A stretch of DNA of 64,000 bases from an uncultured Spirochaetales bacterium. GTDB taxonomy: Bacteria > Myxococcota_A > UBA9160 > UBA6930. The stretch covers positions 28,277 through 92,276 of the forward strand of contig CAZTOU010000016.1 of NCBI GenBank assembly GCA_964615365.1. Direction: 5' to 3'. Positions 3,727-42,556 of this stretch are shown here, one piece after another (within the stretch, counting starts at the first letter, position 1; every line of letters starts with the position of its first letter). Both the position numbers and the translations under genes were made by a program. The notes beneath the pieces are model-generated. The model ran no database searches. It was not told where the DNA came from and saw only the letters and a list, made by a program, of their open reading frames with translations.

Positions 3727-3738
3727 CGCCGCGACAAC

Positions 3739-3803
3739 GGGGACGTTCCTTGCGTTCTTGCGTTTTCGGTACCCGAAAACGCAAGAACGCAAGGAACGTC
3801 CCC
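3739..3803. terminator. Perfect 31-bp stem / 3-nt loop palindrome between convergent genes; presumed bidirectional terminator or repeat element
   Basis: GGGGACGTTCCTTGCGTTCTTGCGTTTTCGG (3739-3769), loop TAC, then the exact reverse complement (3773-3803). It sits between the PBP1A stop (3726) and the HAD stop (3805). No U-tract. Confidence 0.5.
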
Positions 3804-3804
3804 G

Positions 3805-6340: not shown

Positions 6341-6440
6341 CCGTTCCTCTTGACGCGACCTCATTGGGCCAAGCTCCCATGGGTGGAGGTGCATGATACG
6401 GCTTCGCTCCTCTACAGTCGCGACGGGGAGGTGGCGCGCA

Positions 6441-7106: not shown

Positions 7107-7621
7107 AGCGGCGGGTCGCCTACCAGGGGCGCTCCATCACGGTCTGCGTCGAGGAGGCGGAGCTGCCCAACGGGCGCCGCGTGGATCTCGACGTGGTGCG
7201 CCACCCCGGAGCGGCCGCGGTGGTGCCCTTCGAGACCGATCGGGTGGTCCTCTTGATCCGCCAGTTCCGGCACGCGGCGGGGGGCACGATCTGGGAGGTC
7301 CCGGCCGGCAAGCTCGACGGCGACCCCCCCGAGGTCTGCGCAGCCAAAGAGCTCGAGGAGGAGGCGGGGCGGCGGGCCGGTCGACTCGAGCGGCTCGGCT
7401 CGATCTATACCACCCCGGGATTCACCGACGAGGTGATCCACCTCTTCGCCGCCTTCGACCTGGAGCCGATCCCACAGCGCCTCGAGGCCGACGAGGTGAT
7501 CGAGGTGGTGCCCACGCCGATCGAGGAGGCGCTCGAGATGATCTGGCGGGGAGAGCTCCGCGACGGCAAGAGCGCCATCGCCCTGATCCATGCGGCTCGG
7601 CGGATCGGGCTTCTCCGTTGA
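7103..7621 (+). CDS. NUDIX hydrolase (ADP-ribose pyrophosphatase-like)
   Basis: Nudix box 'GKLDGDPPEVCAAKELEEEAG'. ATG 7103 overlaps the nth stop as ATGA. Confidence 0.85.
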   Translation: MKRRVAYQGRSITVCVEEAELPNGRRVDLDVVRHPGAAAVVPFETDRVVLLIRQFRHAAGGTIWEVPAGKLDGDPPEVCAAKELEEEAGRRAGRLERLGSIYTTPGFTDEVIHLFAAFDLEPIPQRLEADEVIEVVPTPIEEALEMIWRGELRDGKSAIALIHAARRIGLLR

Positions 7622-8550
7622 GGCTCGCCGTCGCCCTCGGCTGGCACTCGCTGGCCTTCGAGGAGCTGCTCGAGCTGGTGCGCCACGCCGAGTCGGCGGG
7701 ATTCCGGGCGGCTTTCGTGGACGGGGACGTCTCTCAAATCCCGGGCCGCGGGGAGGGCGACGTCCTCGACGGATGGACCGTCACCGCGGCACTGCTGGCC
7801 AGGACGGAACGGATTCAGATCGGCTCGATCCGCCTGGTCCACCACTGGAACGCGGCGCGACTGGCCCAGGCCACCGCCACTCTGGAGCGCATCGCCCCGG
7901 GTCGGTTCCGCTTCCTGATCTCGATTGGCGGGCAGGCGGCGGACCGGTGCTTCGGCCTCCCGTTTCCCTCCGCGCGGGAGCGCATCGCTTGGCTGAACGA
8001 GACTCTCTGGGCGCTTCGTCGGCTCTGGCAGGGCGACGAGGTGACCTTACGAGGGCGCCACGTACGCCTCGGTGGCGCTCGGATCCGGCCCTGCCCCCCG
8101 GCGGGGCGGCTGCCCATCGAGATCGCCGCCGCCCGTCCTCGAATGCTCGAGCTGGTCGCCACCCACGCCGACGTGTGGGACATCAACCTCCCGCCAATCG
8201 CCTCCTGCTGCCGGACCGCCGAAGAGATCCTGGCCGACGCCTGCCGACGCGAAGACCGCGATCCGGGCGAGATCCGCCGCTCCATGTGGATCTTCACCCG
8301 GCCCCATGGGAGTCCTTCGGATGCGGCGATCCGAGACGAGTACCGCAAACTCAACCCGTGGTTCCGGAGCATCCCCGAGGAGCAGCTCGGCGAGGCGATC
8401 GTGGCCGGCTCCCCCGCGGCGTGTCGGAGCCGGATCCGCGAGATCACCGAGAGCTGCCGCCTCGACCTGCCGGTCGCGGATCTCTCCGGCCTCTCTCATG
8501 ACGCAGCGCGGCGCGCAATTGACGCCCTCGTTGACTCCGGTACCCGTTGA
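7618..8550 (+). CDS. LLM-class (luciferase-like) flavin/F420-dependent oxidoreductase
   Basis: TIM-barrel LLM-like sequence ('LGWHSLAFEELLELVRHAESAGFRAAFVDGD', 'RFRFLISIGG'). In-frame TTG 7618 overlaps the NUDIX stop. The N-terminal part of track ORF 7024..8550 overlaps the nth and NUDIX genes out of frame. Confidence 0.7.
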   Translation: MRLAVALGWHSLAFEELLELVRHAESAGFRAAFVDGDVSQIPGRGEGDVLDGWTVTAALLARTERIQIGSIRLVHHWNAARLAQATATLERIAPGRFRFLISIGGQAADRCFGLPFPSARERIAWLNETLWALRRLWQGDEVTLRGRHVRLGGARIRPCPPAGRLPIEIAAARPRMLELVATHADVWDINLPPIASCCRTAEEILADACRREDRDPGEIRRSMWIFTRPHGSPSDAAIRDEYRKLNPWFRSIPEEQLGEAIVAGSPAACRSRIREITESCRLDLPVADLSGLSHDAARRAIDALVDSGTR

Positions 8551-8728
8551 AACTACGCTCTTCGGGTTAGCGGGATCCCGCGCCCGTCCCGCCAACCCAC
8601 ATTGCTGGAGGCGACGCCGAGGACAGTTGTTGGGCACCCGGTGTCGCCCGAGCGAGTCCGGACGATCGACCAGAGACTGATTCGCACTCGGGGTCGTCGT
8701 AACTGGCTCAGCGTGGGAGGAGGCGAGT

Positions 8729-9493
8729 TTGCACGGACGGGGCTACCAGACGGTCAGGTTCGGACCGCCCGTCACTCCCAGCATCATCAAGTACCTGCTG
8801 ATCGCGAATCTCGCGGTCTTCGTGGCCCAAACGCTCTTTCCGACTCTCTGGGTGCTGGGAGCCGCCACCCCCTACCTGTTCTGGCAGCAGGGGTTCCTCT
8901 GGCAGCCTTTCACCTACATGTGGCTTCACGCGCCAGTCAACGGCGGCGGCTTCATGCACATCGGCTTCAACATGCTGGCGTTGTGGATGTTCGGCTCCCC
9001 TATTGCCCTGCTTTGGGGTGAGAAGAAGTTCCTCCGCTTCTACCTGCTCTGCGGCCTGGGCGCCGGCTTCATCATCGTGGCGTGGCCCGCGTTGCTCGCG
9101 CTCTTCGGCGCGACGCCATCCGCCTACCAGATTCCAACGGTGGGCGCCTCGGGAGCCGTCTTCGGAGTGCTGCTCGCCTACTCGCTCACCTGGCCGGACC
9201 GCACCATCATGCTCCTCTTCCCCCCCATTCCCATCAAGGCGATCTACTTCATTCCGTTCATCCTGGTGCTGGGCTGGCTCAGCGGTGGCAACATCAGCCA
9301 CACGGGTCACCTCGGCGGCGTTCTGGCCGGATGGCTGTTGCTGCGCCGGATGGGAACCACGGGGGGACTCACCTTCAAGTCGCTCCAGTACCGCTGGCGG
9401 CGTTACAAGATGCGCAGAAACCTCCGCTCCGTCCGCATGGAGGAGCTCCGCTCGCGGCAACGGCACGACGATGATCAAGGGCCCTACCACTAG
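8729..9493 (+). CDS. Rhomboid-family intramembrane serine protease (GlpG-like)
   Basis: 254-aa polytopic ORF with 'HIGFNMLALWMFG', catalytic 'GASGAVFG' and 'HTGHLGGVLAG'. TTG start with GGGAGGAGG 5 nt upstream. Confidence 0.85.
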   Translation: MHGRGYQTVRFGPPVTPSIIKYLLIANLAVFVAQTLFPTLWVLGAATPYLFWQQGFLWQPFTYMWLHAPVNGGGFMHIGFNMLALWMFGSPIALLWGEKKFLRFYLLCGLGAGFIIVAWPALLALFGATPSAYQIPTVGASGAVFGVLLAYSLTWPDRTIMLLFPPIPIKAIYFIPFILVLGWLSGGNISHTGHLGGVLAGWLLLRRMGTTGGLTFKSLQYRWRRYKMRRNLRSVRMEELRSRQRHDDDQGPYH

Positions 9494-9556
9494 GAGGGCC
9501 TAGAGGAAGTCCATGCAGGAAGGCAGCTGCACACTCGTGACGGGGAAGACGACCTC

Positions 9557-10444
9557 TTGAGGCGCCATTCCGCGGAAAGAGACTGCAACGGTGGTCGCGG
9601 GGGCATCGGAAGATTCCTCGAGACCCTGTTCGCTGGAATCCCCTGGAGCGAGCGCGCCGAGCAGACCGAGACGATTGAGCTTCCCCGCCCTCCCGGGGGG
9701 AACCTCCGCATCGACAACGCCAACGGCCGCACTCGCATCGTCGGCGAAGAACGGAGCGACATCGAGATCCAGCTCAGCAAGGCCGCTCGAGCGGAGTCCG
9801 AGGAGCAGGCGCAGGAGCTGCTCCGCGCGATCCGCGTGGTGTCCACCGAGGACGCCGCCGGAGACATGACTCTCGACGTCGAGATCCCCGGCCGCTGGAA
9901 CCGGCGCGGACGCGTCGACATGGAGCTGCACATCCCCCGCGAGCTCAAGGTCGAGGTGACCGCCGCCAATGGGAAGATCTGCGTGCAAGGTCTCCGGGGC
10001 GGGGTCCGTGCCCGTTCCAGTAACGGTGCGGTGCGCATCGAGGACGTGGTCGGCGACGTGGAGATCCACACCTCCAACGCCAAGGTCGCGACGATCTGCA
10101 CCTGCGGCCACGTGGCGGCCCGCTCCAGCAACGGAAAGATCGAGCTCGAGAATCATCGCGGCTCGGTCGATGCAGCCACCTCGAACGGGACCATCCACTG
10201 CGAGCTCGAGGACCTCGGGAAATCCGGGGTCGTCCTGTCGACCAGCAACGGACGCATCATCCTCGATCTCCCCGAAGACGCCGACGGCGACGTCGACGTC
10301 CGCGTGGACAACGGACTGATCCGCAACGCCAGGGAGCTCGACCCCCCCTCCCGAGAACGCAGCGGACGGATGAAGGGGACGCTCGGGCGCGGAGGCATTC
10401 CGATCCGGCTCCGCGCGTCCAACGGCACCATCTCGATTCGTTGA
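9557..10444 (+). CDS. DUF4097-like beta-strand repeat protein (putative adhesin fold)
   Basis: Repeated 'xxSNGxIxxE' strands ('SSNGAVRIED', 'SSNGKIELEN', 'TSNGTIHCEL', 'TSNGRIILDL', 'ASNGTISIR'). TTG start and no obvious signal peptide. Confidence 0.6.
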   Translation: MRRHSAERDCNGGRGGIGRFLETLFAGIPWSERAEQTETIELPRPPGGNLRIDNANGRTRIVGEERSDIEIQLSKAARAESEEQAQELLRAIRVVSTEDAAGDMTLDVEIPGRWNRRGRVDMELHIPRELKVEVTAANGKICVQGLRGGVRARSSNGAVRIEDVVGDVEIHTSNAKVATICTCGHVAARSSNGKIELENHRGSVDAATSNGTIHCELEDLGKSGVVLSTSNGRIILDLPEDADGDVDVRVDNGLIRNARELDPPSRERSGRMKGTLGRGGIPIRLRASNGTISIR

Positions 10445-10466
10445 GGCGATCGGATCCCGCGCCGCC

Positions 10467-10958
10467 TTACCCGCCGAGTGCGACGATCTCGGAGGAGATT
10501 CCGTCGCTGCCGACCCGCAGCCGACCGACGGATCGCTGTCGGCCCAGACCCGGCGGACCCGAGTAGCCGGGATTGAAGTAGAGTCGGCCGTTTCGTCGGG
10601 TGTTGTCCGCCACGTGGGTGTGTCCGTAGACGAGCACGTGGGGATCCCACTCGCCGATCTCCCGCTCCACCTTGGGGTGTACGCTTCCCCAGTTGTCGTA
10701 CCAGTGGCACAGCAGCAGGCGCGCGCCGGCCACCTCGACCCGCTGCTCCCAGGGGTAGCGACCGGCGAGGTCCGGATCTCCGTTGCCGACCACCGCCACC
10801 ACCGGCGCCACGGCGCGGAGTCGATCGAGGAGCGATTCGCCACCGATGTCGCCGGCGTGCAGGATCAGCTCCGCATCGGAGAGGACCTCGAGGGTTTCAT
10901 CGCAGAGGTGCCCGTGGCTGTCTGCCAGCACGCAGACGCGAAGCTGCGCCCCACTCAC
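10467..10958 (-). CDS. Metallophosphoesterase, YfcE/MJ0936 family
   Basis: Motifs 'LADSHG', 'HAGDIG', 'GNGD' and 'GHTH'. The GTG start overlaps the upstream stop as GTGA. Confidence 0.8.
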   Translation of the reverse strand: MSGAQLRVCVLADSHGHLCDETLEVLSDAELILHAGDIGGESLLDRLRAVAPVVAVVGNGDPDLAGRYPWEQRVEVAGARLLLCHWYDNWGSVHPKVEREIGEWDPHVLVYGHTHVADNTRRNGRLYFNPGYSGPPGLGRQRSVGRLRVGSDGISSEIVALGG

Positions 10959-11722
10959 CGCCCGCCGCCGACCTTGCGATGGAGCTTCTCTCCGCCGTGC
11001 AGGAAGAGGACGCCGGAGGGCTTGATCTCGGCGACCACCAGGGTCCCCACCGCATCGCCCTCGTGGAGCTCGAGCGTTCCCTCGTGACCTTCCACCTCGA
11101 TCCGTGCCACCCGGCGCGCGGGGGTCGGATGCCAGATGGTCTTCTCGACCGTCACCTTCGGCGGGCGAACCGTCGCGACGCGGGCGGGCGCGGGTGCGGG
11201 CGGCGCCGGTGCGGGGCGCGAGGGCTGGACCTCTGGCTCGGCCGCCGGAGGCGGAGACACGGCGGCAGCCGGGAGGGGCTCCGCGATCCGCTCGGAAGGC
11301 GCCGGCGTCTTCGCGAGCCAGCCAGGCGGTGGCGCCGCGACCTCCTCGGGTGGCGGTGAGACCTCGACCCGCTCCACTGGCGGGGTGGGGTGGGCCGCGG
11401 CGATCTGCTCCTCGCTCCTCGGCGCGGGCTGGTGCGCCGGCCGGGAAGAGATCTCGGAGACCGGCTCGGGAGGCGCGGCGACCGCGGGCGGCAGCTGCGC
11501 GGTGGGCTTCGAGACCTCCTCGGAGGGGATCATTCGCCAGATAAAGAACCCGAACAGGAGCACGGCGAGCAGTGAGATGATACCGAGCCGCCAGTAGCCT
11601 CTTCGCTCCCGCACCAGGGGTTCGCCCGGGCGAACCACGCCCTCGCGAAGCCCGCCCATCTCGCCGCCATCGGCGCCCGTCTCTCCCTCGACGCGCTGAA
11701 GCGCCCGGAGAATCGTGCTCAC
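10955..11722 (-). CDS. GspB/ExeB-like type II secretion accessory protein (Pro-rich periplasmic linker)
   Basis: N-terminus 'STILRALQRVE' resembles the GspB 'SYILDALKKSE' start. It has a single TM helix ('LGIISLLAVLLFGFFIW') and a Pro/Ala-rich linker. GTG 11722 overlaps the exeA stop as GTGA. The longer track ORF to 11935 overlaps exeA. Confidence 0.5.
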   Translation of the reverse strand: MSTILRALQRVEGETGADGGEMGGLREGVVRPGEPLVRERRGYWRLGIISLLAVLLFGFFIWRMIPSEEVSKPTAQLPPAVAAPPEPVSEISSRPAHQPAPRSEEQIAAAHPTPPVERVEVSPPPEEVAAPPPGWLAKTPAPSERIAEPLPAAAVSPPPAAEPEVQPSRPAPAPPAPAPARVATVRPPKVTVEKTIWHPTPARRVARIEVEGHEGTLELHEGDAVGTLVVAEIKPSGVLFLHGGEKLHRKVGGGR

Positions 11723-29201: not shown

Positions 29202-30230
29202 ATGCAGAAGGGACTGATCCTGACCACCGGCATGGCTCGAGGCGACGTGGATCTGGCGGTGCGCGCCGAGGCGGCGGGCTTCGATTCCGTCTTCACCATC
29301 GAGTTCTTCAATCGGCACGGCTACGTACCCCTGGGCGCCATCGCACAGGCGACCCGGCGCATCCGCTTCGGGACGGGGATCGCCAATGCCTTTACCCGCA
29401 GCCCTCTCCTCCACGCCAGCGCGGCGATGGATCTCGACGAGCTCTCCGGGGGGCGGATGATTCTCGGGCTGGGAAGCGCCACGAGGCGCATGAACCAGAA
29501 CTGGTTCGGCGTCCCCTTCTCGGAGCCGGCCGCCCGCATGCGGGAGCTGGTCACGCTGCTTCGCCAGGCAATCGCCGCGCAGAGCGGCCTCGGCTTTCGC
29601 TTCGAGGGCCGCTTCTGGAACTTGAGCGTCCCGATCTACTCGCGGCCCGGTGCCGCGCGAACCGAAATTCCGATCTGGGTCGCCGCCGTCAACCGGGGCA
29701 TGATCGCCGCGGCGGGCGCCGTCGCCGACGCCCTGGTCGGCCACCCGATCGCGACCCGGCGCTGGCATCGCGAGGTCACCCTCCCCGGCCTGCGAAGCGC
29801 GGAGGAGAAAGCGGGCCGGGAATCCGGCGCCTGCAAGCTCGCGCCCTACGTTCTGACCTCCATCTCCGACGATCGCGATCAGGCCGTGCGCGACGCGAAG
29901 GGGCAGATCGGCTTCTACCTCACCACCGAGCTCTACCACTCGATACTCGACCTCCACGGGTTGCGCGAGGTCGGCCAGGCCTGCCGAGCGGCGCTTAGAA
30001 GCTTCGACCTCGCCGCCATGGCCGACGCCATCCCGGACCCGCTCGTCGAGGAGATCGCCATCGCCTGCACCCCGGACGAAGCGCGCGACCGCCTCGCCCA
30101 ATGGAACGATCTCACCGAGGAGCCCCTCTTCTACGCTCCCACCGTCGGGGTCGAGCCGGAACGGGTGGCCGCGAACCTCGACGCGATCCTGGATCTATTC
30201 GGCAGCCGCTCGGACGCGCCTTCGCCATAG
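29202..30230 (+). CDS. LLM-class F420/flavin-dependent oxidoreductase
   Basis: 'AEAAGFDSVFTIEFF', 'RIRFGTGIANAFTRSP' and 'RMILGLGSA' are typical of luciferase-like monooxygenases. In-frame ATGs at 29193 and 29202. A TAGAAT hexamer at 29189-29194. Confidence 0.8.
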   Translation: MQKGLILTTGMARGDVDLAVRAEAAGFDSVFTIEFFNRHGYVPLGAIAQATRRIRFGTGIANAFTRSPLLHASAAMDLDELSGGRMILGLGSATRRMNQNWFGVPFSEPAARMRELVTLLRQAIAAQSGLGFRFEGRFWNLSVPIYSRPGAARTEIPIWVAAVNRGMIAAAGAVADALVGHPIATRRWHREVTLPGLRSAEEKAGRESGACKLAPYVLTSISDDRDQAVRDAKGQIGFYLTTELYHSILDLHGLREVGQACRAALRSFDLAAMADAIPDPLVEEIAIACTPDEARDRLAQWNDLTEEPLFYAPTVGVEPERVAANLDAILDLFGSRSDAPSP

Positions 30231-30968
30231 CCACATCAGCGGCGGCAGGACGAACAGCAGCTCGGAGCTCAGGCCGCAGCCGTAGAAAGCCCCCTCCTGG
30301 TTCTTCCAGGGCTGTCCGACGCACTGCGGGTCCGGGTTCGCCACGCCGTCTCCGTCGGGATCGCTGACGTTGGCGGGGCAACCTCCGGGCTCGCCCGTGC
30401 AGATTCCCCAGATCGACTGTCCGCCGTCGAAGTCGATCAGCCCCGGATCCGGATCCGATCCCGGATCGTTGTTGATCCCGTCCTGGCACTCGGGCGCCTC
30501 GAGGGGCGCAAGGTGGTCGCCGCATCCGGGATCGTCCGGGTAGTCGACCCAGCCGTCGGAGTCGTTGTCGAGGCGGTCGTCGCACGGGTACGCCGGGTAC
30601 TCCGGCCCGAACTGGAGGATTTGCAGGCCGGCGGATCCCCGGGCGACGTAGGCGAGCTCCCCGACCACCTCGACACCCCTGCCCCAGTCCGCGGGGATGA
30701 ACCCGATCTCGACCGGAGCTGCGGGGTTCGAGAGGTCGATGATCCGAACGCCACTGGGGTTTGTGTGGACGACGTAGGCGAGCCCGCCGGCGATCTCGAC
30801 GTCCAAGACGAAGCCCGGCGTGTCGAGGGCTCCGACGTTGATCAGCGCTGCGGCGCGCTCACCTGCGACGAGCCAGAAGACGATCGCCAGGGCAACGAGG
30901 AGGATTCCCGCGGTCTGAACCCTGTTCACCAGGAGTGTGTCAAGGTGTCGCGAACCGAGCGGAGTCAT
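30195..30968 (-). CDS. Secreted LVIVD-repeat / TSP3-like Asp-rich protein with a C-terminal GCGL-TM-RRR tail
   Basis: 257-aa ORF with a signal anchor. LVIVD-like 'GGLAYVVHTNPSGVRIIDLSNPAAP' and 'GELAYVARGSAGLQILQF'. Ca-binding-like 'DNDSDGWVDYPDD' and 'DPDGDGVANPD'. The tail is 'YGCGLSSELLFVLPPLMWLWRRRVRAAAE*'. GGAGGTG upstream of the ATG. Confidence 0.7.
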   Translation of the reverse strand: MTPLGSRHLDTLLVNRVQTAGILLVALAIVFWLVAGERAAALINVGALDTPGFVLDVEIAGGLAYVVHTNPSGVRIIDLSNPAAPVEIGFIPADWGRGVEVVGELAYVARGSAGLQILQFGPEYPAYPCDDRLDNDSDGWVDYPDDPGCGDHLAPLEAPECQDGINNDPGSDPDPGLIDFDGGQSIWGICTGEPGGCPANVSDPDGDGVANPDPQCVGQPWKNQEGAFYGCGLSSELLFVLPPLMWLWRRRVRAAAE

Positions 30969-34211: not shown

Positions 34212-35324
34212 ATGGGCCAGCCGTTCCGGTACATCCTCGAGCAGACCAGCGGCCGGGCCCGCGCCGGCGTGTTCACCACGCCCCACGGTGAGATCCACAC
34301 CCCCGCCTTCATGGTGGTCGGCACCCAGGGCGCGGTGCGCGCCATGACGCCCGAGCAGCTTCGGGGCACCGGGACGGAGGTGCTGCTCGCCAACACCTAT
34401 CACCTCGCCCTGCGCCCCGGCGAGAAGCTGGTGGCCAAGCTCGGCGGGCTGCACCAGTTCATGCGCTGGGAGGGCCCGCTGCTGACCGACAGCGGCGGCT
34501 TCCAGGTCTTCTCGCTGCCCAAGAAGGAGATCAGCGACCAGGGGGTGCGCTTCAAGAACGAGGTGAACGGATCGACCATGGAGCTCACCCCGGAGCGCTC
34601 CGTGGAGATCCAGAACCAGCTCGGCGCCGACATCATCATGGCCTTCGACGAATGCACGCCCTATCCGGCAGACCAGAAGCTCGCCGGGGCGGGGGTGCGG
34701 CGAACCCTCTCGTGGATGGAGCGCTGTCTCCGGGCCCACCGGCACGGCAACCGGCAGGCCCTGTTCGGGATCGTCCAGGGCAGCGTCTACGAGCATCTGC
34801 GCGCGGCCTGTGCGAGCTCTCTGGTGGCGCTCGACCTGCCCGGCTACGCCATCGGCGGAGTCTCGGTCGGCGAGGGACACGAGCTGCTCTGCAAGATCAC
34901 CGCCCTGACCGCGCCCCTGCTCCCCGATTCCAAGCCCCGCTATCTGATGGGCGTGGGGCTGCCCGAGGATCTCCTCGCCGCGATCGGCGAGGGGATCGAT
35001 CTCTTCGACTGCGTGATCCCTACCCGCTACGCGCGCTCAGCGAGCGTCTTCACCTCGCGCGGGCGCATCCGTCTCAGCCATCGCCGCTACCGCCGCGACG
35101 CCTATCCGATCGACACCTCCTGCGACTGCGCCGCCTGCGCGGGCGGCTTCTCGCGCGCCTACCTGCACCATCTCTTCGCATCCAACGAAGTGCTCTCCGC
35201 CATCCTGGCCTCGATCCACAACACCCACTTCTACCAGCAGCTGATGCGGGGCGCGCGCGAGGCCGTCCTCGCCCGCCGCTACGACGACTTCCATCGCGAG
35301 TTCCTGGAGCTCTACCAAGGCTGA
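34212..35324 (+). CDS. tgt: tRNA-guanine transglycosylase (queuine tRNA-ribosyltransferase)
   Basis: 370-aa ORF with 'TPAFMVVGTQGAV', 'LANTYHL', 'LTDSGGFQVFSL' and the Zn site 'CDCAAC...HHL'. Confidence 0.95.
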   Translation: MGQPFRYILEQTSGRARAGVFTTPHGEIHTPAFMVVGTQGAVRAMTPEQLRGTGTEVLLANTYHLALRPGEKLVAKLGGLHQFMRWEGPLLTDSGGFQVFSLPKKEISDQGVRFKNEVNGSTMELTPERSVEIQNQLGADIIMAFDECTPYPADQKLAGAGVRRTLSWMERCLRAHRHGNRQALFGIVQGSVYEHLRAACASSLVALDLPGYAIGGVSVGEGHELLCKITALTAPLLPDSKPRYLMGVGLPEDLLAAIGEGIDLFDCVIPTRYARSASVFTSRGRIRLSHRRYRRDAYPIDTSCDCAACAGGFSRAYLHHLFASNEVLSAILASIHNTHFYQQLMRGAREAVLARRYDDFHREFLELYQG

Positions 35325-35363
35325 TCCGGAGTACGGCTGTTACTCTCCGGTGGGGAGTCCGAG

Positions 35364-35858
35364 ATGAGCCGTCGATACAGCGGTCCGCCGCTGACCACCG
35401 AGCAGGTGCTGGAGCGATACAGCTCGGGCCCCAAGAGCGGGTTGTTCACCGACGGCTCCTGTGAGGGGAACCCGGGCCCCGGCGGCTGGGGCTTCGTCTG
35501 GGTCGAGAACGACGAGATCGTGCAGGAGCGGTGCGGCAGCGATGCCGACACCACCAACAATCGCATGGAGCTCACCGCCCTGATCGAGGCGCTCCGCGTC
35601 CTTCCCGAGGACGCCGAGATCACCGTCTACTCGGACAGCCAGCTCTGCGTGAAGACGGTGAACGAGTGGGCAGCGGGCTGGGAGAAGCGCGGCTGGAAGC
35701 GCAAGAGCGGACCGATCGCCAACCTGGAGCGGGTGAAGCGGTTCTACGAGCTGGCCCGAGCCCATCCGCGGGTTCGCATCGAGTGGATCAGGGCCCACGA
35801 CGGCTCGCGCTGGAACGAGTACGCGGACGCCCTGGCGTCCCGTCATCTAATCGGGTAG
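35364..35858 (+). CDS. rnhA: Ribonuclease HI
   Basis: 164-aa ORF with 'TDGSCEGNPGPGGWGF', 'TNNRMELTALIEAL', 'VYSDSQ' and 'NEYADALA'. Confidence 0.9.
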   Translation: MSRRYSGPPLTTEQVLERYSSGPKSGLFTDGSCEGNPGPGGWGFVWVENDEIVQERCGSDADTTNNRMELTALIEALRVLPEDAEITVYSDSQLCVKTVNEWAAGWEKRGWKRKSGPIANLERVKRFYELARAHPRVRIEWIRAHDGSRWNEYADALASRHLIG

Positions 35859-36722
35859 CGAGGCCGGCTCCTCCGGGATGGCGCAGCTCACCGGGAGGTC
35901 GGCGAGCGCCGCAGCGAAGAGCTCTCGGTTCTTTTCGCCCAGATCGTCGCGCAGCAGCACCTCGCAAACCTCTCCCGAGGCGATACGCTGCACGTCGACC
36001 GCGACCGCCCAGAGGAAGAGCGCCGCCAGACCGGCGGCGACCCACCGCATCCAGCGCGGAGAGGGGCCCAGGGGAATCGGCCCCGCACCGCGGGAGACGA
36101 GGGCCATCGCGGCCATTCCACCGGCGAAGCCGCCGAAGTGCGCAGACCAGGCGATTTTGAAGGGGAGCACGACAGCCAGGAGTGCATCCCCGACCAGAGC
36201 GATGGGGATGACCCACCTTACCCGGCGCAGCAGGGGCGTCAGGGACCTCTTCTGTCGCAGCACCAGTGTCCCCCAAGCCCCGAGCATTCCGAAGATCGCC
36301 CCGGAGGCTCCCACCACCACAGTTCCTCCCGGCGGCACGGCGACGGTGGCGAGCGAGCCGGCGAGCATCGAGAGAGCGATGACCAGCAGTGTCCTCAGGC
36401 TCCCGACCTGTGCCTCCAGCGCTGCACCCAATCCCAGCAAGCCCGCCAGATTCATCGTGAAGTGGATATCGTCCGCGTGCAGGAGAGGGGCGGTGAAGAT
36501 GCGGAAGACCTCCCCCTCCCGTACCAACTCCGGGTCGAGGCCACCGACCAGGTACGCCGAGTGGCCGGTGCCGTCCTCGGTGAGCGCGTTCGCCCACCAA
36601 AGGGCCGCGAAGACCAGCGAGAGCAGTGCGGCGAAGCTGAGGGTCGTGGTAGCGCCATGGTACTGAACACCGTCGGGGCCCGTCGTCCAGAAGCTCGGGC
36701 GGAGCCGGTCACCTTCGCTCAT
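35847..36722 (-). CDS. Rhomboid-family intramembrane serine protease, translationally coupled to the RHS gene
   Basis: 291 aa from ATG 36722, which overlaps the RHS stop as ATGA. 'RIFTAPLLHADDIHFTMNL', catalytic 'GASGAIFG' and 'HFGGFAGG'. There is an extra C-terminal TM helix and a tail. Confidence 0.8.
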   Translation of the reverse strand: MSEGDRLRPSFWTTGPDGVQYHGATTTLSFAALLSLVFAALWWANALTEDGTGHSAYLVGGLDPELVREGEVFRIFTAPLLHADDIHFTMNLAGLLGLGAALEAQVGSLRTLLVIALSMLAGSLATVAVPPGGTVVVGASGAIFGMLGAWGTLVLRQKRSLTPLLRRVRWVIPIALVGDALLAVVLPFKIAWSAHFGGFAGGMAAMALVSRGAGPIPLGPSPRWMRWVAAGLAALFLWAVAVDVQRIASGEVCEVLLRDDLGEKNRELFAAALADLPVSCAIPEEPASLPD

Positions 36723-39700
36723 CGGTGTCGCCTCCACCGGCGCGCGGCCCATCTGCGGATCAGCAGAGGGGCGAGCAGAAGCTGCGCCGCAATCAAGAAC
36801 CAGTGCAGATGTCCGAGGCCTGGGACCGAGGCGAGCCGCACCGGCGAGCAGCTCCCCGAGCTGGAGGACGTGGGTACGCTGGGGATGGATGCGAGGGCGG
36901 TTGAGCTGTCCGAGGTGAGTGCGCGACCCAGCGTCAAGGAGAAGCCGAGACCTGTCACCCCGAAGGCTGCCGCTGCCACCGCGGCGGCCAACGCCGTGGT
37001 GACGAAGAAGAGAGCGATGGCCGCCAAGATCAGGCCGAGGGCGGCGGCGCCCACCGCCACGACGGCCTCGGCATTTCGCCCATCCGGATCCGCGAACCAC
37101 ACAGGATTGCCCAGCGCATAGGCGTACTGGTTGACGTACTGGAGCACCGGATCCGGGGACAGGAAGCGGCCCACGGCGGGATCGTAGACCCTCGCGCCCA
37201 GAACCATCAACTCGCCGATCTGGGTGCGGCCCGCGAAGCGCACGAAGTCGTCGTCGGTGCCGATCACCTGGCGCAGCCCGTAGGCATCGTACTCGTAGTG
37301 GCTGTGGACCTCGCCGTCCTGGTCGCTCACGAACTTGACGTTGCCGCGGAAGTCCAGGTGGCGGTAGCGACGCTCGCCCGTGGCGAACTCCACGCGAACC
37401 TCTCCGAGATCGATCGCGCTGGGAATGCCCGCCGGGTCCGCCTGCACCCGCCCGCCGAAGAGCCAGCGGCTCTCCACCTCCATCACCACGGAGCGCACCC
37501 TGCGGTCCAGCGCGTCCCACTCGAAGAGGACGTCGCTCCCATAGGAGGCCAGCCGACCGGATGCGGTCCAGGTGAGGGGGACCCCCCGGCGCGAGGTGGC
37601 GAATCCCGCCTCGTCGTAGCTGTAGTCGATGGTTCCCGCCGCGAGAGTCGTCGCCGAGAGCAGGCGATTGCTCTCCGCGTTGTAGGTGAAGCTCTCGCCG
37701 AGGGCGGTCGACCCCAGGCCGTTGCTGAGCGCGTCGTACTCGTATGCACTGTGCAGGGTCTCACCGATCCAGAAGTAGACGCGCTGGCCGGCCACCGGCT
37801 CCTGGCCCGGCGTCCCGAATCCGGGTCCCAGCATGTACTCCTCGCTGGTGGTGGCGGCGACAGCTCCGAAGGTCGTGGTGAGGGCGGTGGCATGTAGCCC
37901 CGGCGCGAACGCCATCGGCCCCTCCCATGTGATCTCGGTCTCCTCCACCACCCCACCGGGACCCTCGGTCGTGGAGCCTTCCAGCTGGCCGTTCGACGGG
38001 TCGTAGCGGTAGAGCCGCACCAGACCGTTTCCATGGCTCGTCAGGGCGAGCTTCCCGTCCTGGTAGACGTGCTGGACCAGGAGGTGACCGTTGTCCGAGA
38101 GGCTCACCCGCCGATCGGCGAGATCGTATCCGTGATCGAACCAGCGGAGGAGCAAGTCGCTCGCCAGGACCTCGCGGGTCGTTCGGGAGCGCAGGTCGTG
38201 GGTCAGCAGCAGGATCTCTCCGTCCGGATACTCGACCTGTACGACTCGGTCCGCAGTGTCGTACGAGTAGAGCTCGACCCCACCGCGTACCGAGTCTTCG
38301 AGGCTTCGAAGCCGTCCCTCTGCGTAGCCCATGACCGCCGCGGACTCGATTGCGCCGTCGCGGAGATTGCGGATCGACACGACCCGACCCACCGCGTCGT
38401 AGTCGGCCTCCCGCCGCATCCCGTTGGCCAGCTCGGTCGCGGTGACACGCCCGGCGGCGTCGTACTCGAGGGTCGTCGAAGCCCAGGCGCCGTCCACCCT
38501 CTCGCGGATCCGTGCCAGGCGGCCCAGGGAGTCGTAGTCGAACTCGTCATCGCCTCCACCGGGACGCGCGATCCGCGTGCGCAGGCCGTCGCTGCGGTGT
38601 TCGATCTCGATGTACTGATCGGGATGCCGCGGGATGCCCCCGTAGGCCGCATCCGCCACCCGGATGCGACGGAGATTGCGGTCCTCGTCGTATTCGCGGG
38701 AGACGACCCCACCGAGCTCGGGAGTCACGCCGTGGATGCCCCGGAGCAGGTTGCCCACCAGATCGTACTCGTTCTCGATCTCGAGTTCGTCGGTGGTCAG
38801 CAGGGTCGGGTGACCGTGGGCGCCGTGGCCGTCGTACTCGACCACTCCGTTCGCGGTGGTGAAGGAGGCGACGGTCTGGTCGGACGCGTAGCTGTAGCTC
38901 GCCACGACCTCTCCCTCACCGTTCTCCACCGCCACCAGTCGGCCGGATCCGTCGTAGCTGCGCCGCTCTCGCAGGCCGATGCTGTCGACGATCTCGAGCG
39001 GGGCTCGCTCCAGGAGGGCCTCGCGATTCACCGCGGCGGCGGCATAGCTGAAGCTGACCACGTTGCCGGATGGCTGGATCTCGATGGCGACGTCGTCGTC
39101 TTGATGGCTCCAGCGGGTCGTCGCGCCACTCGGCTGGGTCTCCTCGCCGACCCGGAGTCCGTCCCAGGAGAGGTACAGCGCCTCCTCCACGTCCGTCGAT
39201 TCCCGCTCGCGGAGACGGCGCTCCCCGTCGTAGCGAAACCAGGTCACGTGGCCGAGCGGATCGATGTGCCGGGTCGCGAAGAGCCCGGCCTCGTTCTTGA
39301 CGTAGTAGTCGAACCGGTGGACCGGATGCTCCTCTCCGATCGCCCGTACCTCTCGTACGCGACGACCCCCGTAGAGGTACTCGACGCGCTCTCCCTCCGA
39401 GCTGACGATCGCACTGAGGTCGATCCCCGAGTACTCGTATCGGGTGCCCGGCCATCCGCGTGCGGTGTCGAGCCCGTCGCGAATCCCCGTCAGGCGATCG
39501 GCCGAGTAGAGGATCTCCGCGACTCGGCCGGCGCGATCGCTGATCGAGGCGACCTGCCCGTCCGGTCCATAGGAAATCTCGAAGACCGGCTCGCAGTCCC
39601 CGGAACCCATGCACTGATCGATCGCGACGGTTCGCGGCGCTCCCGCCACGATCCCTTGCAGGTAGGAGAGGCGCGGATAATCCGCGCTCGCGTAATGGAC

Positions 39701-40165
39701 GGCGCTGAGTCGGGAATCCGGGGCGAAATCGTAGGCGAGCCCTCCCTTGGTCTTTACGGTGTCGGCGTCGACGACCACCCAGACGGTTCCGGGAATCGCG
39801 TCTCCGTGCGCGAGGGCCCTGGTGTCATGGGAGGCGCCGGTCGGATCGACGAAGAGGGCCCCGTCGTAGCGGACGTCGAAGCTCCAGAGCCACCCCCGGG
39901 AGGCGGAGTTGTAGGCGGCACCGATCTCGCGGGTTCCGAGATGCGTGTCGATGCTGAGAACCGAACGTCGGACCAGCAGGTTTCCACCCAGGGGATTGAC
40001 GACTGCACCGGGAACCTCCAGCACGGCGCGCTCCTGGTACTGGGGCAAGCCGGCCGCCGGCGCCAGCTTCTTGGCCCTCGGCGGACAGCCCAGCGCCGCG
40101 ATCAAGGCGATCGACAGCACGGCGATCGCGCGATTCATCGGACTTGCGGAGTGCGGATTCCTCAT
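36719..40165 (-). CDS. RHS/YD-repeat protein with signal/lipobox-like N-terminus and an atypical hydrophobic, Cys-containing C-terminal tip
   Basis: 1148-aa ORF. N-terminus 'AIAVLSIALIAALGC'. Many YD repeats ('YDAAGRVTATE', 'YDAVGRVVSI', 'YDSLGRLARI'). The RHS core ends 'GRFLSPDP...GNPVWFADPDGR'. The 118-aa tip contains TM segments, an 'SSSSGSCSP' stretch and 'WFLIAAQLLLAPLLIRRWAARRWRRHR*'. GGAGAGGG upstream of ATG 40165. Confidence 0.9.
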   Translation of the reverse strand: MRNPHSASPMNRAIAVLSIALIAALGCPPRAKKLAPAAGLPQYQERAVLEVPGAVVNPLGGNLLVRRSVLSIDTHLGTREIGAAYNSASRGWLWSFDVRYDGALFVDPTGASHDTRALAHGDAIPGTVWVVVDADTVKTKGGLAYDFAPDSRLSAVHYASADYPRLSYLQGIVAGAPRTVAIDQCMGSGDCEPVFEISYGPDGQVASISDRAGRVAEILYSADRLTGIRDGLDTARGWPGTRYEYSGIDLSAIVSSEGERVEYLYGGRRVREVRAIGEEHPVHRFDYYVKNEAGLFATRHIDPLGHVTWFRYDGERRLRERESTDVEEALYLSWDGLRVGEETQPSGATTRWSHQDDDVAIEIQPSGNVVSFSYAAAAVNREALLERAPLEIVDSIGLRERRSYDGSGRLVAVENGEGEVVASYSYASDQTVASFTTANGVVEYDGHGAHGHPTLLTTDELEIENEYDLVGNLLRGIHGVTPELGGVVSREYDEDRNLRRIRVADAAYGGIPRHPDQYIEIEHRSDGLRTRIARPGGGDDEFDYDSLGRLARIRERVDGAWASTTLEYDAAGRVTATELANGMRREADYDAVGRVVSIRNLRDGAIESAAVMGYAEGRLRSLEDSVRGGVELYSYDTADRVVQVEYPDGEILLLTHDLRSRTTREVLASDLLLRWFDHGYDLADRRVSLSDNGHLLVQHVYQDGKLALTSHGNGLVRLYRYDPSNGQLEGSTTEGPGGVVEETEITWEGPMAFAPGLHATALTTTFGAVAATTSEEYMLGPGFGTPGQEPVAGQRVYFWIGETLHSAYEYDALSNGLGSTALGESFTYNAESNRLLSATTLAAGTIDYSYDEAGFATSRRGVPLTWTASGRLASYGSDVLFEWDALDRRVRSVVMEVESRWLFGGRVQADPAGIPSAIDLGEVRVEFATGERRYRHLDFRGNVKFVSDQDGEVHSHYEYDAYGLRQVIGTDDDFVRFAGRTQIGELMVLGARVYDPAVGRFLSPDPVLQYVNQYAYALGNPVWFADPDGRNAEAVVAVGAAALGLILAAIALFFVTTALAAAVAAAAFGVTGLGFSLTLGRALTSDSSTALASIPSVPTSSSSGSCSPVRLASVPGLGHLHWFLIAAQLLLAPLLIRRWAARRWRRHR

Positions 40166-40237
40166 TGGCCCTCTCCTGATTGTCGAAGGATCGGGGTGAG
40201 AAAGCGGGGACCGTCACATCGCGAGCGGGAGTGCAGA

Positions 40238-40855
40238 TCACCCATGCAGCGCACCCCCCGCGGATTCCCAGACCGAACGGAGATTCAGCCCCGCGTGCAG
40301 TCCGATGCACGCGGCTACCGTCCGGGAGACGCGGCGAAGGAGCGCCAGCAGCATTCCGACCAGGAAGCTCCCGAGCATCGGCCACGGTGTGAGATGGGTG
40401 ATCGCGAACAGCGCGCTGGTGAGAAGCGCCGCACCGCCCGTTCCCACCGGTGTCGCCGCGATGGCGTCGAAGAGGCGCTCGCGATAGAGCAGCTCCTCGA
40501 AGACCGGCGCGGCCAACACCACCGCGAACAGAAGGGAAAGGCCGGGAGCGGGCGAAGGGGCCAGCAGGCTCGGATCGAGCCCCAGCGCGAGGCCGGCCAG
40601 AGCGATCGCGCCGCAGAGGGAGGGATGGGCGGCGAATCCGAGCGCGCCCGCCAAGCCGAAGAGGACCGCGTGGCGCAGCCGAGGCCGCACCCGGAACGGA
40701 CGGCGCGTCGCGATCAGAAAGGCCGCGGCGAGGCTCATGACCACGAGCACCGCGGGCTCTTCGCCGACCCGCGAAGAGAGCCGGGATCCGCTCACCAGGA
40801 TCGTCCAGACCGCCAGCATCGCCAGAAGCGCGCGGAGCAACGGATCGTTCCTCAT
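40238..40855 (-). CDS. CPBP-family (CAAX/Abi-type) intramembrane glutamic endopeptidase
   Basis: Motifs 'EELLYR' (EExxxR), 'FAITH' (FxxxH) and 'HAGLN' (HxxxN) in a polytopic ORF. ATG 40855 overlaps the upstream stop as ATGA; the track ORF starts at 40870. Confidence 0.8.
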   Translation of the reverse strand: MRNDPLLRALLAMLAVWTILVSGSRLSSRVGEEPAVLVVMSLAAAFLIATRRPFRVRPRLRHAVLFGLAGALGFAAHPSLCGAIALAGLALGLDPSLLAPSPAPGLSLLFAVVLAAPVFEELLYRERLFDAIAATPVGTGGAALLTSALFAITHLTPWPMLGSFLVGMLLALLRRVSRTVAACIGLHAGLNLRSVWESAGGALHG

Positions 40856-41571
40856 CGCAAACCGACCCATGAGCGGGGGCGGGGGGGCCTAGATGCGGCC
40901 GCGGCCATCGCGGATCCGATCGCGACCCAGCCCATCCCCAGCACCTCCGGCGCGATCAGGGGTTCGCCAAGGGGAGACGGCGCGCGGAATGGCTCGATCG
41001 CCAGACGCATCGCCCCGAAACCATAGAGTGTCGCCGATCCGACCCATGCCCGCGGAAGGCGCCGCGTCCACGCGGCGAGGCCCAGGAGCCCCGCGATCTC
41101 GTAGAGCCGGGTCGGATGGTCTCCAAACCAACCCGCAGCCCCGTGACAGCATCCGGAGGCGATGCAGCCGAGTCGCGCCACCGCGAAGGCGTGGGGCAGG
41201 CTCCCCAGCGCCGCTCCGAGGTACCGCTCCCGCGCGACCCGCCCCCGCGGCAAGAGGGCGATGACCCCCAGAGGCGCGAACAGCACGCTGTGGCCGGCCG
41301 CGGGACGCAGCAGCGCCCGCGGATCCGCCGCCACGTCGTCGAGATGAAGTAGCGCCCAGCCGAGGTGCGCCGCCGCTGCCGCCAGGACCAGGCCGGCGAC
41401 GAAGCGAACCCCGCTCTCCGCCGGCCCTCCCCGGTGGAGGTAGTCGAAGACCGCCATCCAGAACGCGCCGCCGAGTGCGACCATGCGCCCGACCTCGGCC
41501 AGGGGTGGGTGCAGGTGGGCCGCGAACGCTGCGCTCGACGCCAGGGCCCAAAGCACGGTGCGGGCGCCCAT
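40852..41571 (-). CDS. Prolipoprotein diacylglyceryl transferase (Lgt) family protein, Cys-rich loop variant
   Basis: 239-aa polytopic ORF. 'ARLGCIASGCCHG' aligns with Lgt 'GRLGNFINGELWG', 'HPTRLYE' with 'HPSQLYE', and 'YGFGAMRLAIEPFR' with 'YGAFRIIVEFFR'. Confidence 0.7.
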   Translation of the reverse strand: MGARTVLWALASSAAFAAHLHPPLAEVGRMVALGGAFWMAVFDYLHRGGPAESGVRFVAGLVLAAAAAHLGWALLHLDDVAADPRALLRPAAGHSVLFAPLGVIALLPRGRVARERYLGAALGSLPHAFAVARLGCIASGCCHGAAGWFGDHPTRLYEIAGLLGLAAWTRRLPRAWVGSATLYGFGAMRLAIEPFRAPSPLGEPLIAPEVLGMGWVAIGSAMAAAASRPPRPRSWVGLR

Positions 41572-41710
41572 TGTTCCTTCCAGCGCGGGACCGGCGGATC
41601 GACTTCGGCCACTATATGCCGAGACGGGTCCTTGGGAAGACGGTTTGGCCGGCCGACTCCGGACGCCACCGCACGTCGCCGGACGACCGCGTAGGCATTA
41701 GACTGGCTCC

Positions 41711-42556
41711 ATGCAGCGGCGGATCGGACGAGCGAAGCTGGGTGACGTCGAGATCGAATGGGAGCGACTCGGATCGGGCGACCGCCCCTTCGTCCTGGTG
41801 CACGGATTCACGGGATCGCGGGACGACTGGGCCGACGTGCTCCCCGCCCTGGCAGAGCTGGGGCCAACGGTCGTCCTCGATCAGCGAGGTCACGGCGGAT
41901 CGACCAACCCGGGGACCCCGGAGGCCTACTCGCTCCCGCAGCTGGTCCTGGACCTCACCCGCTTCCTCGACGCCATGGGGATCGCGCGCTGCGACCTCCT
42001 CGGCCACTCGATGGGCGGGATGGTCTGTCTCCGCCTGACGCTCGCACACCCGGAGCGCGTCGCCTCCCTGGTGCTGATGGACACGGCGCCGGGACCGATT
42101 GGCGGCACATCCCGGAAGCTCGTGGAGGTCGGAGCCAAGATCGCGCGCGAGCAGGGGATGGTGAAGCTCTACACGGCGAAGCGGGCGCAGACGAGCCAGG
42201 ATCCCGAGCGGTCCGCCGCCTCCCGGCGCGCCGAGGAGAGGATGGGACCCGAGCGCTACTGGGAGCGGATCCGCGCCAAGTTCGAGGCGATGGATCCGGA
42301 GGCATTCATCACGCTGGGGAATCAGCTGATCGACCACGAGAGCGTGGAAGATCGACTCGGCGAGATCCGCTGTCCGACCACGGTCCTGGTCGGATCCGAG
42401 GACGCCGACTTCCTCGCGCCCTCACGCCGGCTCGAGGCGGGAATCCAGGGTGCGACGCGCATCGAGGTTCCCGGCGCCGAGCACAGCCCGCAGATCGAGA
42501 ATCCGGAGCTCTGGCTGGCGGCGATCCGTGACCACCTGGCTCGGGCCCGCGGGTGA
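41711..42556 (+). CDS. Alpha/beta hydrolase
   Basis: 281-aa ORF with 'FVLVHGFTGSRDDW', nucleophile elbow 'GHSMGG' and a C-terminal 'AEHSP'. Confidence 0.8.
   Translation: MQRRIGRAKLGDVEIEWERLGSGDRPFVLVHGFTGSRDDWADVLPALAELGPTVVLDQRGHGGSTNPGTPEAYSLPQLVLDLTRFLDAMGIARCDLLGHSMGGMVCLRLTLAHPERVASLVLMDTAPGPIGGTSRKLVEVGAKIAREQGMVKLYTAKRAQTSQDPERSAASRRAEERMGPERYWERIRAKFEAMDPEAFITLGNQLIDHESVEDRLGEIRCPTTVLVGSEDADFLAPSRRLEAGIQGATRIEVPGAEHSPQIENPELWLAAIRDHLARARG

Follow-up and report, generated by a model that had tools for sequence, protein, structure and literature searches.

The window analyzed here is a stretch of 64,000 nucleotides (nt) from an uncultured Spirochaetales bacterium placed by GTDB in Myxococcota_A (UBA9160; UBA6930), corresponding to positions 28,277 to 92,276 of contig CAZTOU010000016.1 in GenBank assembly GCA_964615365.1. 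The source genome is a metagenome-assembled genome (MAG) of 5.5 Mb that is 95% complete, and the contig concerned is C16 of that genome. Four coupled minus-strand genes spanning window positions 35847 to 41571 encode, in this order, an Lgt-like protein, a CPBP-family protease, an Rhs protein, and a rhomboid protease. A first-pass annotation of this DNA had proposed that the four form one unit that processes or anchors the C terminus of the Rhs protein. The features of the locus, in window coordinates, are as follows.

41611 to 41638, minus strand: promoter-like site TTCCCA-16-TATAGT, a consensus match only, within the 139-nt divergent intergenic region 5' of the Lgt-like gene
40852 to 41571, minus strand: Lgt-like gene, 239 amino acids (aa), polytopic membrane protein
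40238 to 40855, minus strand, with an alternative ATG at 40870: CPBP/Rce1-like gene, Pfam Rce1-like 59 bits
40166 to 40237, minus strand: spacer between the CPBP and RHS genes, 72 nt, holding the Shine-Dalgarno sequence AGGAGAGGG at 40169 to 40177
36719 to 40165, minus strand: RHS gene, 1148 aa, Rhs/YD-repeat shell protein
40085 to 40165, minus strand: lipoprotein signal peptide of the Rhs protein with lipobox ..LIAALG-C27, read from the translation; the Cys is kept in most orthologs, including those that lack the C-terminal tail
37079 to 37291, minus strand: Rhs-associated core, ending ..NPVWFADPDG, where Rhs proteins usually have their self-cleavage motif
36926 to 37066, minus strand: Gly/Ala-rich hydrophobic stretch, residues 1034 to 1080, which could form two helices, at the usual position of an Rhs cargo or toxin
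36722 to 36862, minus strand: C-terminal tripartite signal, consisting of ..GS-C1106-SP, a spacer of 12 residues, a helix with Gln at mid-membrane, and RRWAARRWRRHR, defined from 15 tails aligned on the Cys
35847 to 36722, minus strand: rhomboid gene, 291 aa, intramembrane serine protease

A single predicted operon is the best explanation of this arrangement, because stop and start codons overlap within ATGA at two junctions (40855 to 40852 for the Lgt-like stop and the CPBP start, and 36722 to 36719 for the RHS stop and the rhomboid start), the RHS gene has a strong ribosome site of its own, and the lone promoter-like site lies before the first gene. That site is the sole sigma-70-like match in the 6.7 kb from 35300 to 42000; the Lgt-like gene has the ribosome site GGAAGGA directly before its ATG, the Shine-Dalgarno sequence AGGAGAGGG ends 3 nt ahead of the RHS ATG, and CPBP orthologs begin at the Met equivalent to the ATGA start. 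Every gene junction is bridged, without differences, by contigs of three other samples from the same marine study. The elements that the first-pass annotation had read from the sequence, namely, four co-directional minus-strand genes, both ATGA overlaps, the 72-nt gap with its Shine-Dalgarno site, the catalytic motifs of all three membrane enzymes, and a Sec/lipobox-like N terminus on the Rhs protein (found in most orthologs as well), were all recovered. The possibility raised with that proposal, that the Lgt-like and CPBP genes might be the only housekeeping copies, does not apply to them or to the rhomboid, since the genome also contains three canonical Lgt genes (Pfam LGT 162, 156, and 88 bits) along with five further CPBPs and as many further rhomboids.

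The Rhs protein matches RHS_repeat (81 bits), YD_repeat_2x (54 bits), and, at residues 959 to 1029, Rhs_assc_core (TIGR03696; 60 bits), and by analogy with other Rhs proteins we infer that its core cleaves itself. No Pfam or NCBIfam domain matched the region after the core, the hydrophobic stretch included; all Rhs orthologs, tailed or tail-less, have a comparable stretch. A Ser-rich linker joins this stretch to the Cys motif that opens the tail. In the alignment of 15 tails, which were drawn from relatives, metagenome contigs, and one Acidobacteriota MAG, the Cys is invariant, the residue before it is mostly small, Ser or Ala followed by Pro comes after it, and the end is rich in Arg. The spacer between Cys and helix measures about 12 to 14 residues in most of the 15 (range, 9 to 17) and often includes a Pro, and the Myxococcota and metagenome tails carry a Gln, Asn, or Glu at mid-membrane in the helix. 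When a hidden Markov model of the tail was searched against the whole genome, only the Rhs protein matched (E 2e-19), the next match being at E 0.1. The last 54 or 119 residues of the protein matched no sorting-domain model in NCBIfam, TIGR03901 and GlyGly-CTERM included, even at E 10. By its composition and architecture, nonetheless, the tail looks like a sorting signal.

The two enzymes encoded upstream of RHS are candidates for acting on such a signal. The AlphaFold2 model of the Lgt-like protein (16 orthologs) has a predicted local distance difference test score (pLDDT) of 88.8, and in a Foldseek search against the PDB its only match at E<=0.001 was E. coli Lgt (5azb; E 3.2e-5, probability 1.00, TM 0.54), with the next match at E 0.2. 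The 16 orthologs conserve ARLGCxxxGCC; R189 does not vary, R196 and P194 hardly do, and R133 is Arg in 14 of the 16 sequences and Lys in the other 2. The C-terminal motifs HPxxLYE and GAxRxxxExxR align with those of E. coli Lgt (5azb), and the RLGC..GCC motif aligns with the canonical Lgt paralogs of the same genome. The conserved residues presumably correspond to R143, R239, E243, and R246 of E. coli Lgt, that is, to the catalytic Arg pair and the C-terminal Glu/Arg. An NCBIfam search at E 0.01 returned no model for the protein, that of Lgt (TIGR00544) included. The structural model indicates that this is a real Lgt-fold protein, the fourth and a divergent Lgt paralog of the genome, and we propose it as a putative diacylglyceryl transferase for the tail Cys. 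Its clade is small, with only 66 proteins at E<=1e-5 among 5.8 billion clusters, all of them from metagenome or MAG records and mostly unnamed or annotated as "hypothetical." The triple-Cys motif RLGCxxxGCC was considered as a signature of the clade and rejected, as it occurs in two canonical Lgt paralogs of the genome and in more than 599 stretches from many phyla.

In the CPBP protein the catalytic motifs EExxxR, FxxxH, and HxxxN are intact, with E125, E126, R130, F155, H159, H192, and N196 invariant in 12 orthologs, and we propose it as the enzyme that would cleave the tail. It falls under the cut-off of every NCBIfam Mrt model that it matches (MrtJ, 36.7 against 75 bits; MrtS, 32.7 against 130; Mrt_core, 29.2 against 100; MrtP, 20.2 against 250; MrtC, 19 against 195). 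Searches of its own genome gave no Mrt_core match above the cut-off and a single weak match to MYXO-CTERM (TIGR03901), on another contig. The window itself contains, at 30195 to 30968 (minus strand), a gene for a 257-aa LVIVD-repeat protein with a MYXO-CTERM-like end, in which ..GCGLSSE is followed by a hydrophobic helix and RRRVR and the Cys adjoins the helix.

In one relative (G001) a single open frame joins the Lgt-like and CPBP genes, and this is the sole long form among the 5.8 billion protein clusters. We considered it as a Rosetta stone fusion and treat it as a probable indel artifact, given that frameshifts also affect RHS or CPBP in G001 and G003. The frame breaks in these related MAGs (RHS split in G001, at loci L033 and L047; CPBP split in G003, at L031) are probably assembly indels, as is probably the case in G007 (L145), where the tail sits in another frame. 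A complex prediction for the Lgt-like protein with CPBP scored 0.00 and is not used as evidence.

The linkage of these genes in other genomes was assessed from gene orders obtained with tblastn and phmmer on fetched loci, written here with L for Lgt-like, C for CPBP, R for RHS, Rh for rhomboid, and X for an extra membrane protein described below. The order L-C-R-Rh is found in the window genome and in three other genomes of its genus. L-C-X-R-Rh is found in G031, which belongs to another family, in G023, and at L049, from a MAG whose title is simply "bacterium," and G007 has C-X-R-Rh on one contig with L at the end of another. The remaining arrangements are L-R-C-X in G011 and G005, L-R-C in G035, R-X-L-C in a MAG labeled Spirochaetales, R-X-L in G040 with CPBP on another contig, and, on two metagenome contigs, C-UvrA-L-SurA-R and C-x-R-y-L, where x and y are uncharacterized open reading frames (ORFs). 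Linkage that survives rearrangement, even with unrelated genes in between, argues for a shared function, and the arrangement is more than chance because it recurs in other genera, in other families, and in one other phylum. The neighborhood comparison suggested by the first-pass annotation thus finds Lgt-like, CPBP, and tailed Rhs genes linked in relatives in at least five gene orders, and on this comparative evidence the core triad of these three appears well supported. The larger claim of a four-gene unit holds in part: the core triad is linked, and the usual module in relatives adds protein X, which is absent from the window.

Two further observations were made on these loci. In a metagenome module (L128), positions 3215 to 4033 (plus strand) between CPBP and RHS encode a 272-aa secreted protein with a PEP-CTERM-like end (..VPEP, helix, KR). 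Two MAGs labeled uncultured Spirochaetales (loci L053 and L054) carry the module, and in the tree of the Rhs shell the L053 protein is the sister of that of G030 (Myxococcota) on short branches, which suggests either a mislabeled bin or a recent transfer.

The distribution of the enzymes was compared with that of the tail across 41 related genomes. The Lgt-like protein and the CPBP of this clade are both present in 16 of the 41 and both missing from 20, with one of the two in the remaining 5; the Rhs ortholog is single copy and occurs in 28. Tails of the C[S/A]P or CHG type were accompanied by both enzymes in every case (12 of 12: G000 to G003, G005, G007, G011, G023, G030, G031, G035, and G040). 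Conversely, seven genomes have a tail-less Rhs ortholog (four of genus g2, two of g6, and G016), and neither enzyme was found in any of the seven. The alternative frames of these seven tail-less genes contain no hidden tail, and their products retain the N-terminal lipobox and the hydrophobic stretch. Because tail-less orthologs keep the lipobox in genomes without the enzymes, the Lgt paralog does not appear to be needed for lipidation of the N terminus.

A row of the same composition occurs in another phylum. In a Thermoanaerobaculia (Acidobacteriota) MAG, locus L061, positions 5481 to 11214 (contig C5 of G041), encodes Rhs, then Lgt, then CPBP. The Rhs protein has 1412 aa and ends in a Cys motif, a spacer, a helix, and RRR. 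The Lgt of the row scores 108 bits, and a stronger copy (190 bits) lies elsewhere in that genome, while 40 relatives of this MAG have one Lgt each. The CPBP of the row scores 61 bits, has MrtJ as its best NCBIfam match (58 bits against a cut-off of 75), and resembles the CPBP of the window at the motif level only. The occurrence of nonorthologous parts in the same triad is the strongest single argument for a common role of Rhs Cys tail, Lgt, and CPBP. Downstream of the row there is one more YD-repeat ORF. This locus also appeared in a regular-expression scan for CPBPs near distant Lgt-like genes, in which most matches were false positives among high-GC six-frame ORFs; the only credible ones were L061 and L088, each with an adjacent CPBP, and L079, with a CPBP-like ORF about 4.5 kb away. 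In L088, from a Nitrospiraceae MAG, positions 8229 to 11550 hold a CPBP gene followed by a gene for a 791-aa fusion of LGT (119 bits) with Peptidase_C25 (gingipain/PorU-type; 122 bits), one more instance in which an Lgt is paired with peptidases. An Omnitrophota locus (L068) with an Lgt gene beside a YD-repeat gene was set aside as uninformative, its setting being a housekeeping one (UvrB, BirA, CoaX).

The rhomboid fits the system less closely. It matches Pfam Rhomboid (100 bits), with the Ser/His dyad present in GASGAIFG and AHFGGFAGG, and its best NCBIfam match is rhombosortase (TIGR03902), for which it scores 58.7 bits where 84 are required. Its orthologs, which are 58 to 59% identical, are confined to the same genus. 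In G031, G023, G007, and L049 a rhomboid of another type, of about 440 aa and 31 to 36% identical to that of the window, is encoded just downstream of RHS. These proteins are no closer to the rhomboid of the window than a housekeeping paralog is, and they share an extra N-terminal domain (two helices and a cytoplasmic module) that the window protein lacks. In G037 there is a rhomboid match after an RHS fragment, and the genomes with the L-R-C order have no adjacent rhomboid. The rhomboid as a stable member of the unit, as first proposed, is therefore not borne out, since clear orthologs occur within the genus only and other genera have the 440-aa type or none. We regard it as an accessory, lineage-variable member whose link to the system is plausible because its position after RHS recurs. 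The 440-aa rhomboids just downstream of RHS in other genera include the following.

L049, 15548 to 16939: rhomboid of about 440 aa
L055, 5281 to 6612: rhomboid of about 440 aa
L145, 4813 to 6153: rhomboid of about 440 aa
L038, 3741 to 5180: rhomboid of about 440 aa

Another rhomboid-family gene in the window, at 8729 to 9493 (plus strand; Pfam Rhomboid 96 bits), lies at a position unrelated to the operon.

Protein X is a polytopic membrane protein of 230 to 330 aa whose gene adjoins the Lgt-like or CPBP gene in 13 relatives. Besides nine other loci, it is found at the following positions.

L055, 993 to 1784, plus strand: protein X
L049, 11294 to 12151, plus strand: protein X
L038, 8103 to 9113, minus strand: protein X
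L041, 9010 to 9708, plus strand: protein X

Its invariant, His-rich motifs are GYGH, WHxxEN, YH, H, and YLFWSxLHVxQT, and it matches no Pfam or NCBIfam family. Its model (pLDDT 89.6) had no match in the PDB by Foldseek, and VIA-align returned only generic 7-helix bundles, with Z scores up to 6.1. In the Atlas it weakly resembles a cluster of Brp/Blh dioxygenases (TM 0.54 by the shorter side), which is a lead only. Protein X was not found in the window genome, in its genus, in G035, on the two metagenome contigs, or at the Acidobacteriota locus.

The operon is flanked by a divergent alpha/beta-hydrolase gene (41711 to 42556, plus strand) and a convergent RNase H gene (35364 to 35858, plus strand), and the ten neighbors scanned within about 6 kb on each side, which are a sample of the called genes there, are all housekeeping genes (TGT, RNase H, OMP decarboxylase, acyl coenzyme A dehydrogenases, hydrolases, and MsrB). 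No gene of a type VI secretion system (T6SS), PAAR, Tc, CdiB, or two-partner type was among these ten, in agreement with the first-pass annotation, which had noted no T6SS, Tc-toxin, or CdiB genes nearby.

We hypothesize, with slightly better than even confidence, that the operon is a dedicated single-client C-terminal sorting system for the Rhs lipoprotein, myxosortase-like and equipped with its own Lgt paralog. In this scheme the Rhs precursor would be exported by Sec, and its N-terminal lipobox would be handled by the housekeeping Lgt/Lsp pathway. The last helix and the Arg cluster would hold the C terminus in the inner membrane and would thereby place the Cys-Ser-Pro motif at the periplasmic face, some 12 to 14 residues from the helix. 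The Lgt paralog would then put a diacylglyceryl group on the tail Cys, and the translationally coupled CPBP would cut beside the modified Cys and so remove the helix and the Arg cluster, a step that may be likened to that of Rce1 after prenyl-Cys and to the one proposed for myxosortase at MYXO-CTERM. The rhomboid might either clear the remnant helix or make an alternative, releasing cut. The earlier suggestion that these enzymes process the Cys-containing transmembrane tail with its Arg end is favored by the linkage, by the way in which the enzymes track the tail, and by the row in a second phylum; the rhomboid proved an unstable part of it, and the chemistry is a prediction.

A number of observations weigh against this hypothesis. 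The Lgt-like protein scores 23.8 bits against Pfam LGT (PF01790), where the cut-off is 24.9, and does so over profile positions 110 to 237 only, the C-terminal half; it is shortened and lacks the periplasmic loop of canonical Lgt, and the His of HPxxLYE is not conserved across the family. The tail presents its Cys ahead of a spacer and an out-to-in helix, a topology inverted relative to that of a lipobox, and the two hydrophobic segments upstream of the Cys could hold the Rhs protein in the membrane after cleavage. Five genomes (G010, G019, G028, G034, and G039) have Cys tails of another flavor on their Rhs proteins, and no Lgt-like gene was found in them. Two others (G012 and G020) keep C-X-L without an adjacent Rhs gene; in G020 the Rhs gene lies 400 kb away, and in G012, which is 88% complete, no Rhs gene was found. 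On the tree of the Rhs shell the state of the tail changes just twice, once in the clade of g2 and g6 and once in G016, which leaves two independent contrasts, so that the correlation of tail and enzymes is not open to statistical testing; an independent-pairs comparison of tail and Lgt-like protein on this tree had too few pairs.

Some of these observations would suit other explanations. If CPBP alone did the sorting, with a housekeeping Lgt or no lipidation at all serving the Cys, the Lgt-like protein could be a noncatalytic adaptor or scaffold or could act on a lipid. Its shortened form and its score under the Pfam cut-off favor this, as do the five genomes with a Cys-tailed Rhs and no detected Lgt-like gene, in one of which (G019) a CPBP nevertheless adjoins Rhs. 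In addition, MrtX processed a MYXO-CTERM tail in E. coli, where only the housekeeping Lgt was present (PMC11980579). We consider this explanation unlikely, since the Lgt paralog is found in every one of the 12 genomes whose tail is of the C[S/A]P or CHG type and the Acidobacteriota row uses a different, fully canonical-looking second Lgt. The conservation across the family of the presumed equivalents of Lgt R143, R239, E243, and R246 likewise argues for retained chemistry. It is also conceivable that the enzymes have their substrate elsewhere in the Rhs protein, for instance in the Gly/Ala-rich hairpin or at the N-terminal lipobox, or that they serve other clients altogether, and that their correlation with the tail stems from shared ancestry. 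That only two independent tail losses lie behind the correlation, and that in G012 and G020 the enzyme genes stand apart from any Rhs gene, would be in line with this. Yet both the lipobox and the hydrophobic stretch persist where the enzymes are absent, the tail has the architecture of a classic sorting signal with a single client in the genome, and the linkage outlasts many rearrangements and recurs in another phylum, which together make a different substrate quite unlikely.

Rhs proteins usually bear C-terminal toxins with the immunity gene directly downstream, and CPBP/Abi proteins are bacteriocin-immunity factors, so the operon might instead be a toxin-immunity module in which the hydrophobic C terminus of Rhs is a membrane-active toxin that one or more of the three enzymes (the Abi-type CPBP, the Lgt-like protein, and the rhomboid) degrade or modify, thereby protecting the producer. 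In the three genomes with the L-R-C order CPBP is indeed directly downstream of RHS, as the rhomboid is in the window, and a link to polymorphic toxins has been described for PrsW, a family of related membrane peptidases (PMC3482391). We regard this as distinctly improbable because the enzymes track the Cys tail and not the hydrophobic putative cargo, which persists in tail-less orthologs from genomes without either enzyme, and because the C-terminal region is not cassette-variable and diverges collinearly among orthologs. Moreover, the Rhs ortholog is single copy and found across the order, it has a Sec/lipobox leader and no toxin domain recognizable by Pfam or NCBIfam, and no T6SS/PAAR context is seen among the ten neighbors scanned. 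Finally, all three enzyme families are common in bacteria, and housekeeping membrane enzymes might have come to lie beside an Rhs gene by chance. This is scarcely credible, and the synteny data already contradict it: the enzymes are supernumerary, they are translationally coupled, and their linkage is kept across genera, families, and a second phylum.

By curated thresholds, the operon lies outside every defined Mrt, MYXO-CTERM, and rhombosortase family. Its nearest likeness is to MrtX and MYXO-CTERM, in which a CPBP is likewise paired with a tripartite signal of invariant Cys, helix, and Arg cluster; for MYXO-CTERM, a 2025 experimental study (PMC11980579) gives a two-step working model in which an "Lgt-like acyl-transferase," named there as a guess and not identified, acts first and the CPBP myxosortase second, the same route that we propose here. 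The lipidating enzyme of MYXO-CTERM-type signals is stated to be unknown both there and in bioRxiv 10.1101/2023.06.07.544157. The differences are that the CPBP of the window fails every Mrt cut-off (Mrt_core, 29 against 100 bits), that its tail has no TIGR03901 match and a spacer of about 12 to 14 residues where in MYXO-CTERM the Cys abuts the helix, that there is one client rather than dozens, and that a dedicated Lgt paralog is present in the operon. The view of the first-pass annotation that no described system combines these families needs qualification to this extent: an Lgt-like step followed by CPBP has been proposed for MYXO-CTERM in that study. MrtJ with JDVT-CTERM, described there as sporadic, with one client per genome and the enzyme encoded beside it (PMC11980579), is similar in its single client and adjoining enzyme, and MrtJ is the best NCBIfam match of both the window and the Acidobacteriota CPBPs. 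Their scores of 36.7 and 58 bits fall short of the cut-off of 75, however, and here the client is an Rhs shell and there is an extra Lgt paralog, with or without protein X and a rhomboid.

The likenesses to other pathways are more partial. With the Lgt/LspA pathway the operon shares an Lgt fold with its Arg and Glu residues, a small residue before the Cys and Ser or Ala after it, and the logic of Cys lipidation followed by removal of the adjoining helix; it differs in its C-terminal target, its inverted topology, the absence of a Leu at -3, and the use of a CPBP in place of the aspartic peptidase LspA. CAAX processing (prenyltransferase, Rce1, and ICMT) offers a parallel in that a C-terminal Cys is lipidated by a separate enzyme and an Rce1-family protease removes the rest, an analogy that has been drawn in the literature (PMC11980579; bioRxiv 10.1101/2023.06.07.544157). 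In contrast to CAAX processing, the lipid donor and the transferase family would differ, the enzyme being of the Lgt type and not a soluble prenyltransferase, and the part removed would be a helix and Arg cluster rather than three residues; no methyltransferase was identified in this comparison, and protein X has no detectable likeness to ICMT. As in rhombosortase/GlyGly-CTERM systems, a rhomboid gene adjoins one whose product ends in a helix and a basic tail, but the rhomboid scores 58.7 against 84 bits, there is no GlyGly-CTERM match, and the rhomboid is not kept with the system beyond the genus. The Rhs protein, for its part, resembles Rhs/YD polymorphic toxins in its repeats, its Rhs-associated core, its DPxG motif, and its C-terminal extension, and departs from them in its Sec/lipobox leader, in having no recognizable toxin domain, in showing no cassette variation, and in being a conserved single-copy ortholog.

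These comparisons allow a bolder hypothesis, which we regard as possible though rather doubtful: that the lipid transferases still missing for Cys-type C-terminal sorting signals are Lgt paralogs, and that bacteria have in this operon a counterpart of CAAX processing, in which, in most relatives, protein X finishes the new end. Judged from the sequences of its enzymes, the operon would hold both activities of the two-step MYXO-CTERM model, one of the Lgt type and one of the CPBP type, beside a single client, and with a dedicated extra Lgt, a protease, and the client in one operon, the missing lipidation step is open to a compact test. If the sorting hypothesis is true, this would be the first such sorting signal on an Rhs shell protein, and the shell would be lipidated at both termini. 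If the core cleaves itself, the product would instead include a hydrophobic cargo peptide of about 75 residues (1031 to 1106) that ends in a lipidated Cys. To our knowledge, neither a doubly lipidated Rhs shell nor such a cargo peptide has been described. The operon would then point to a form of Rhs that is anchored or released by lipid chemistry and is not delivered by T6SS or Tc machinery.

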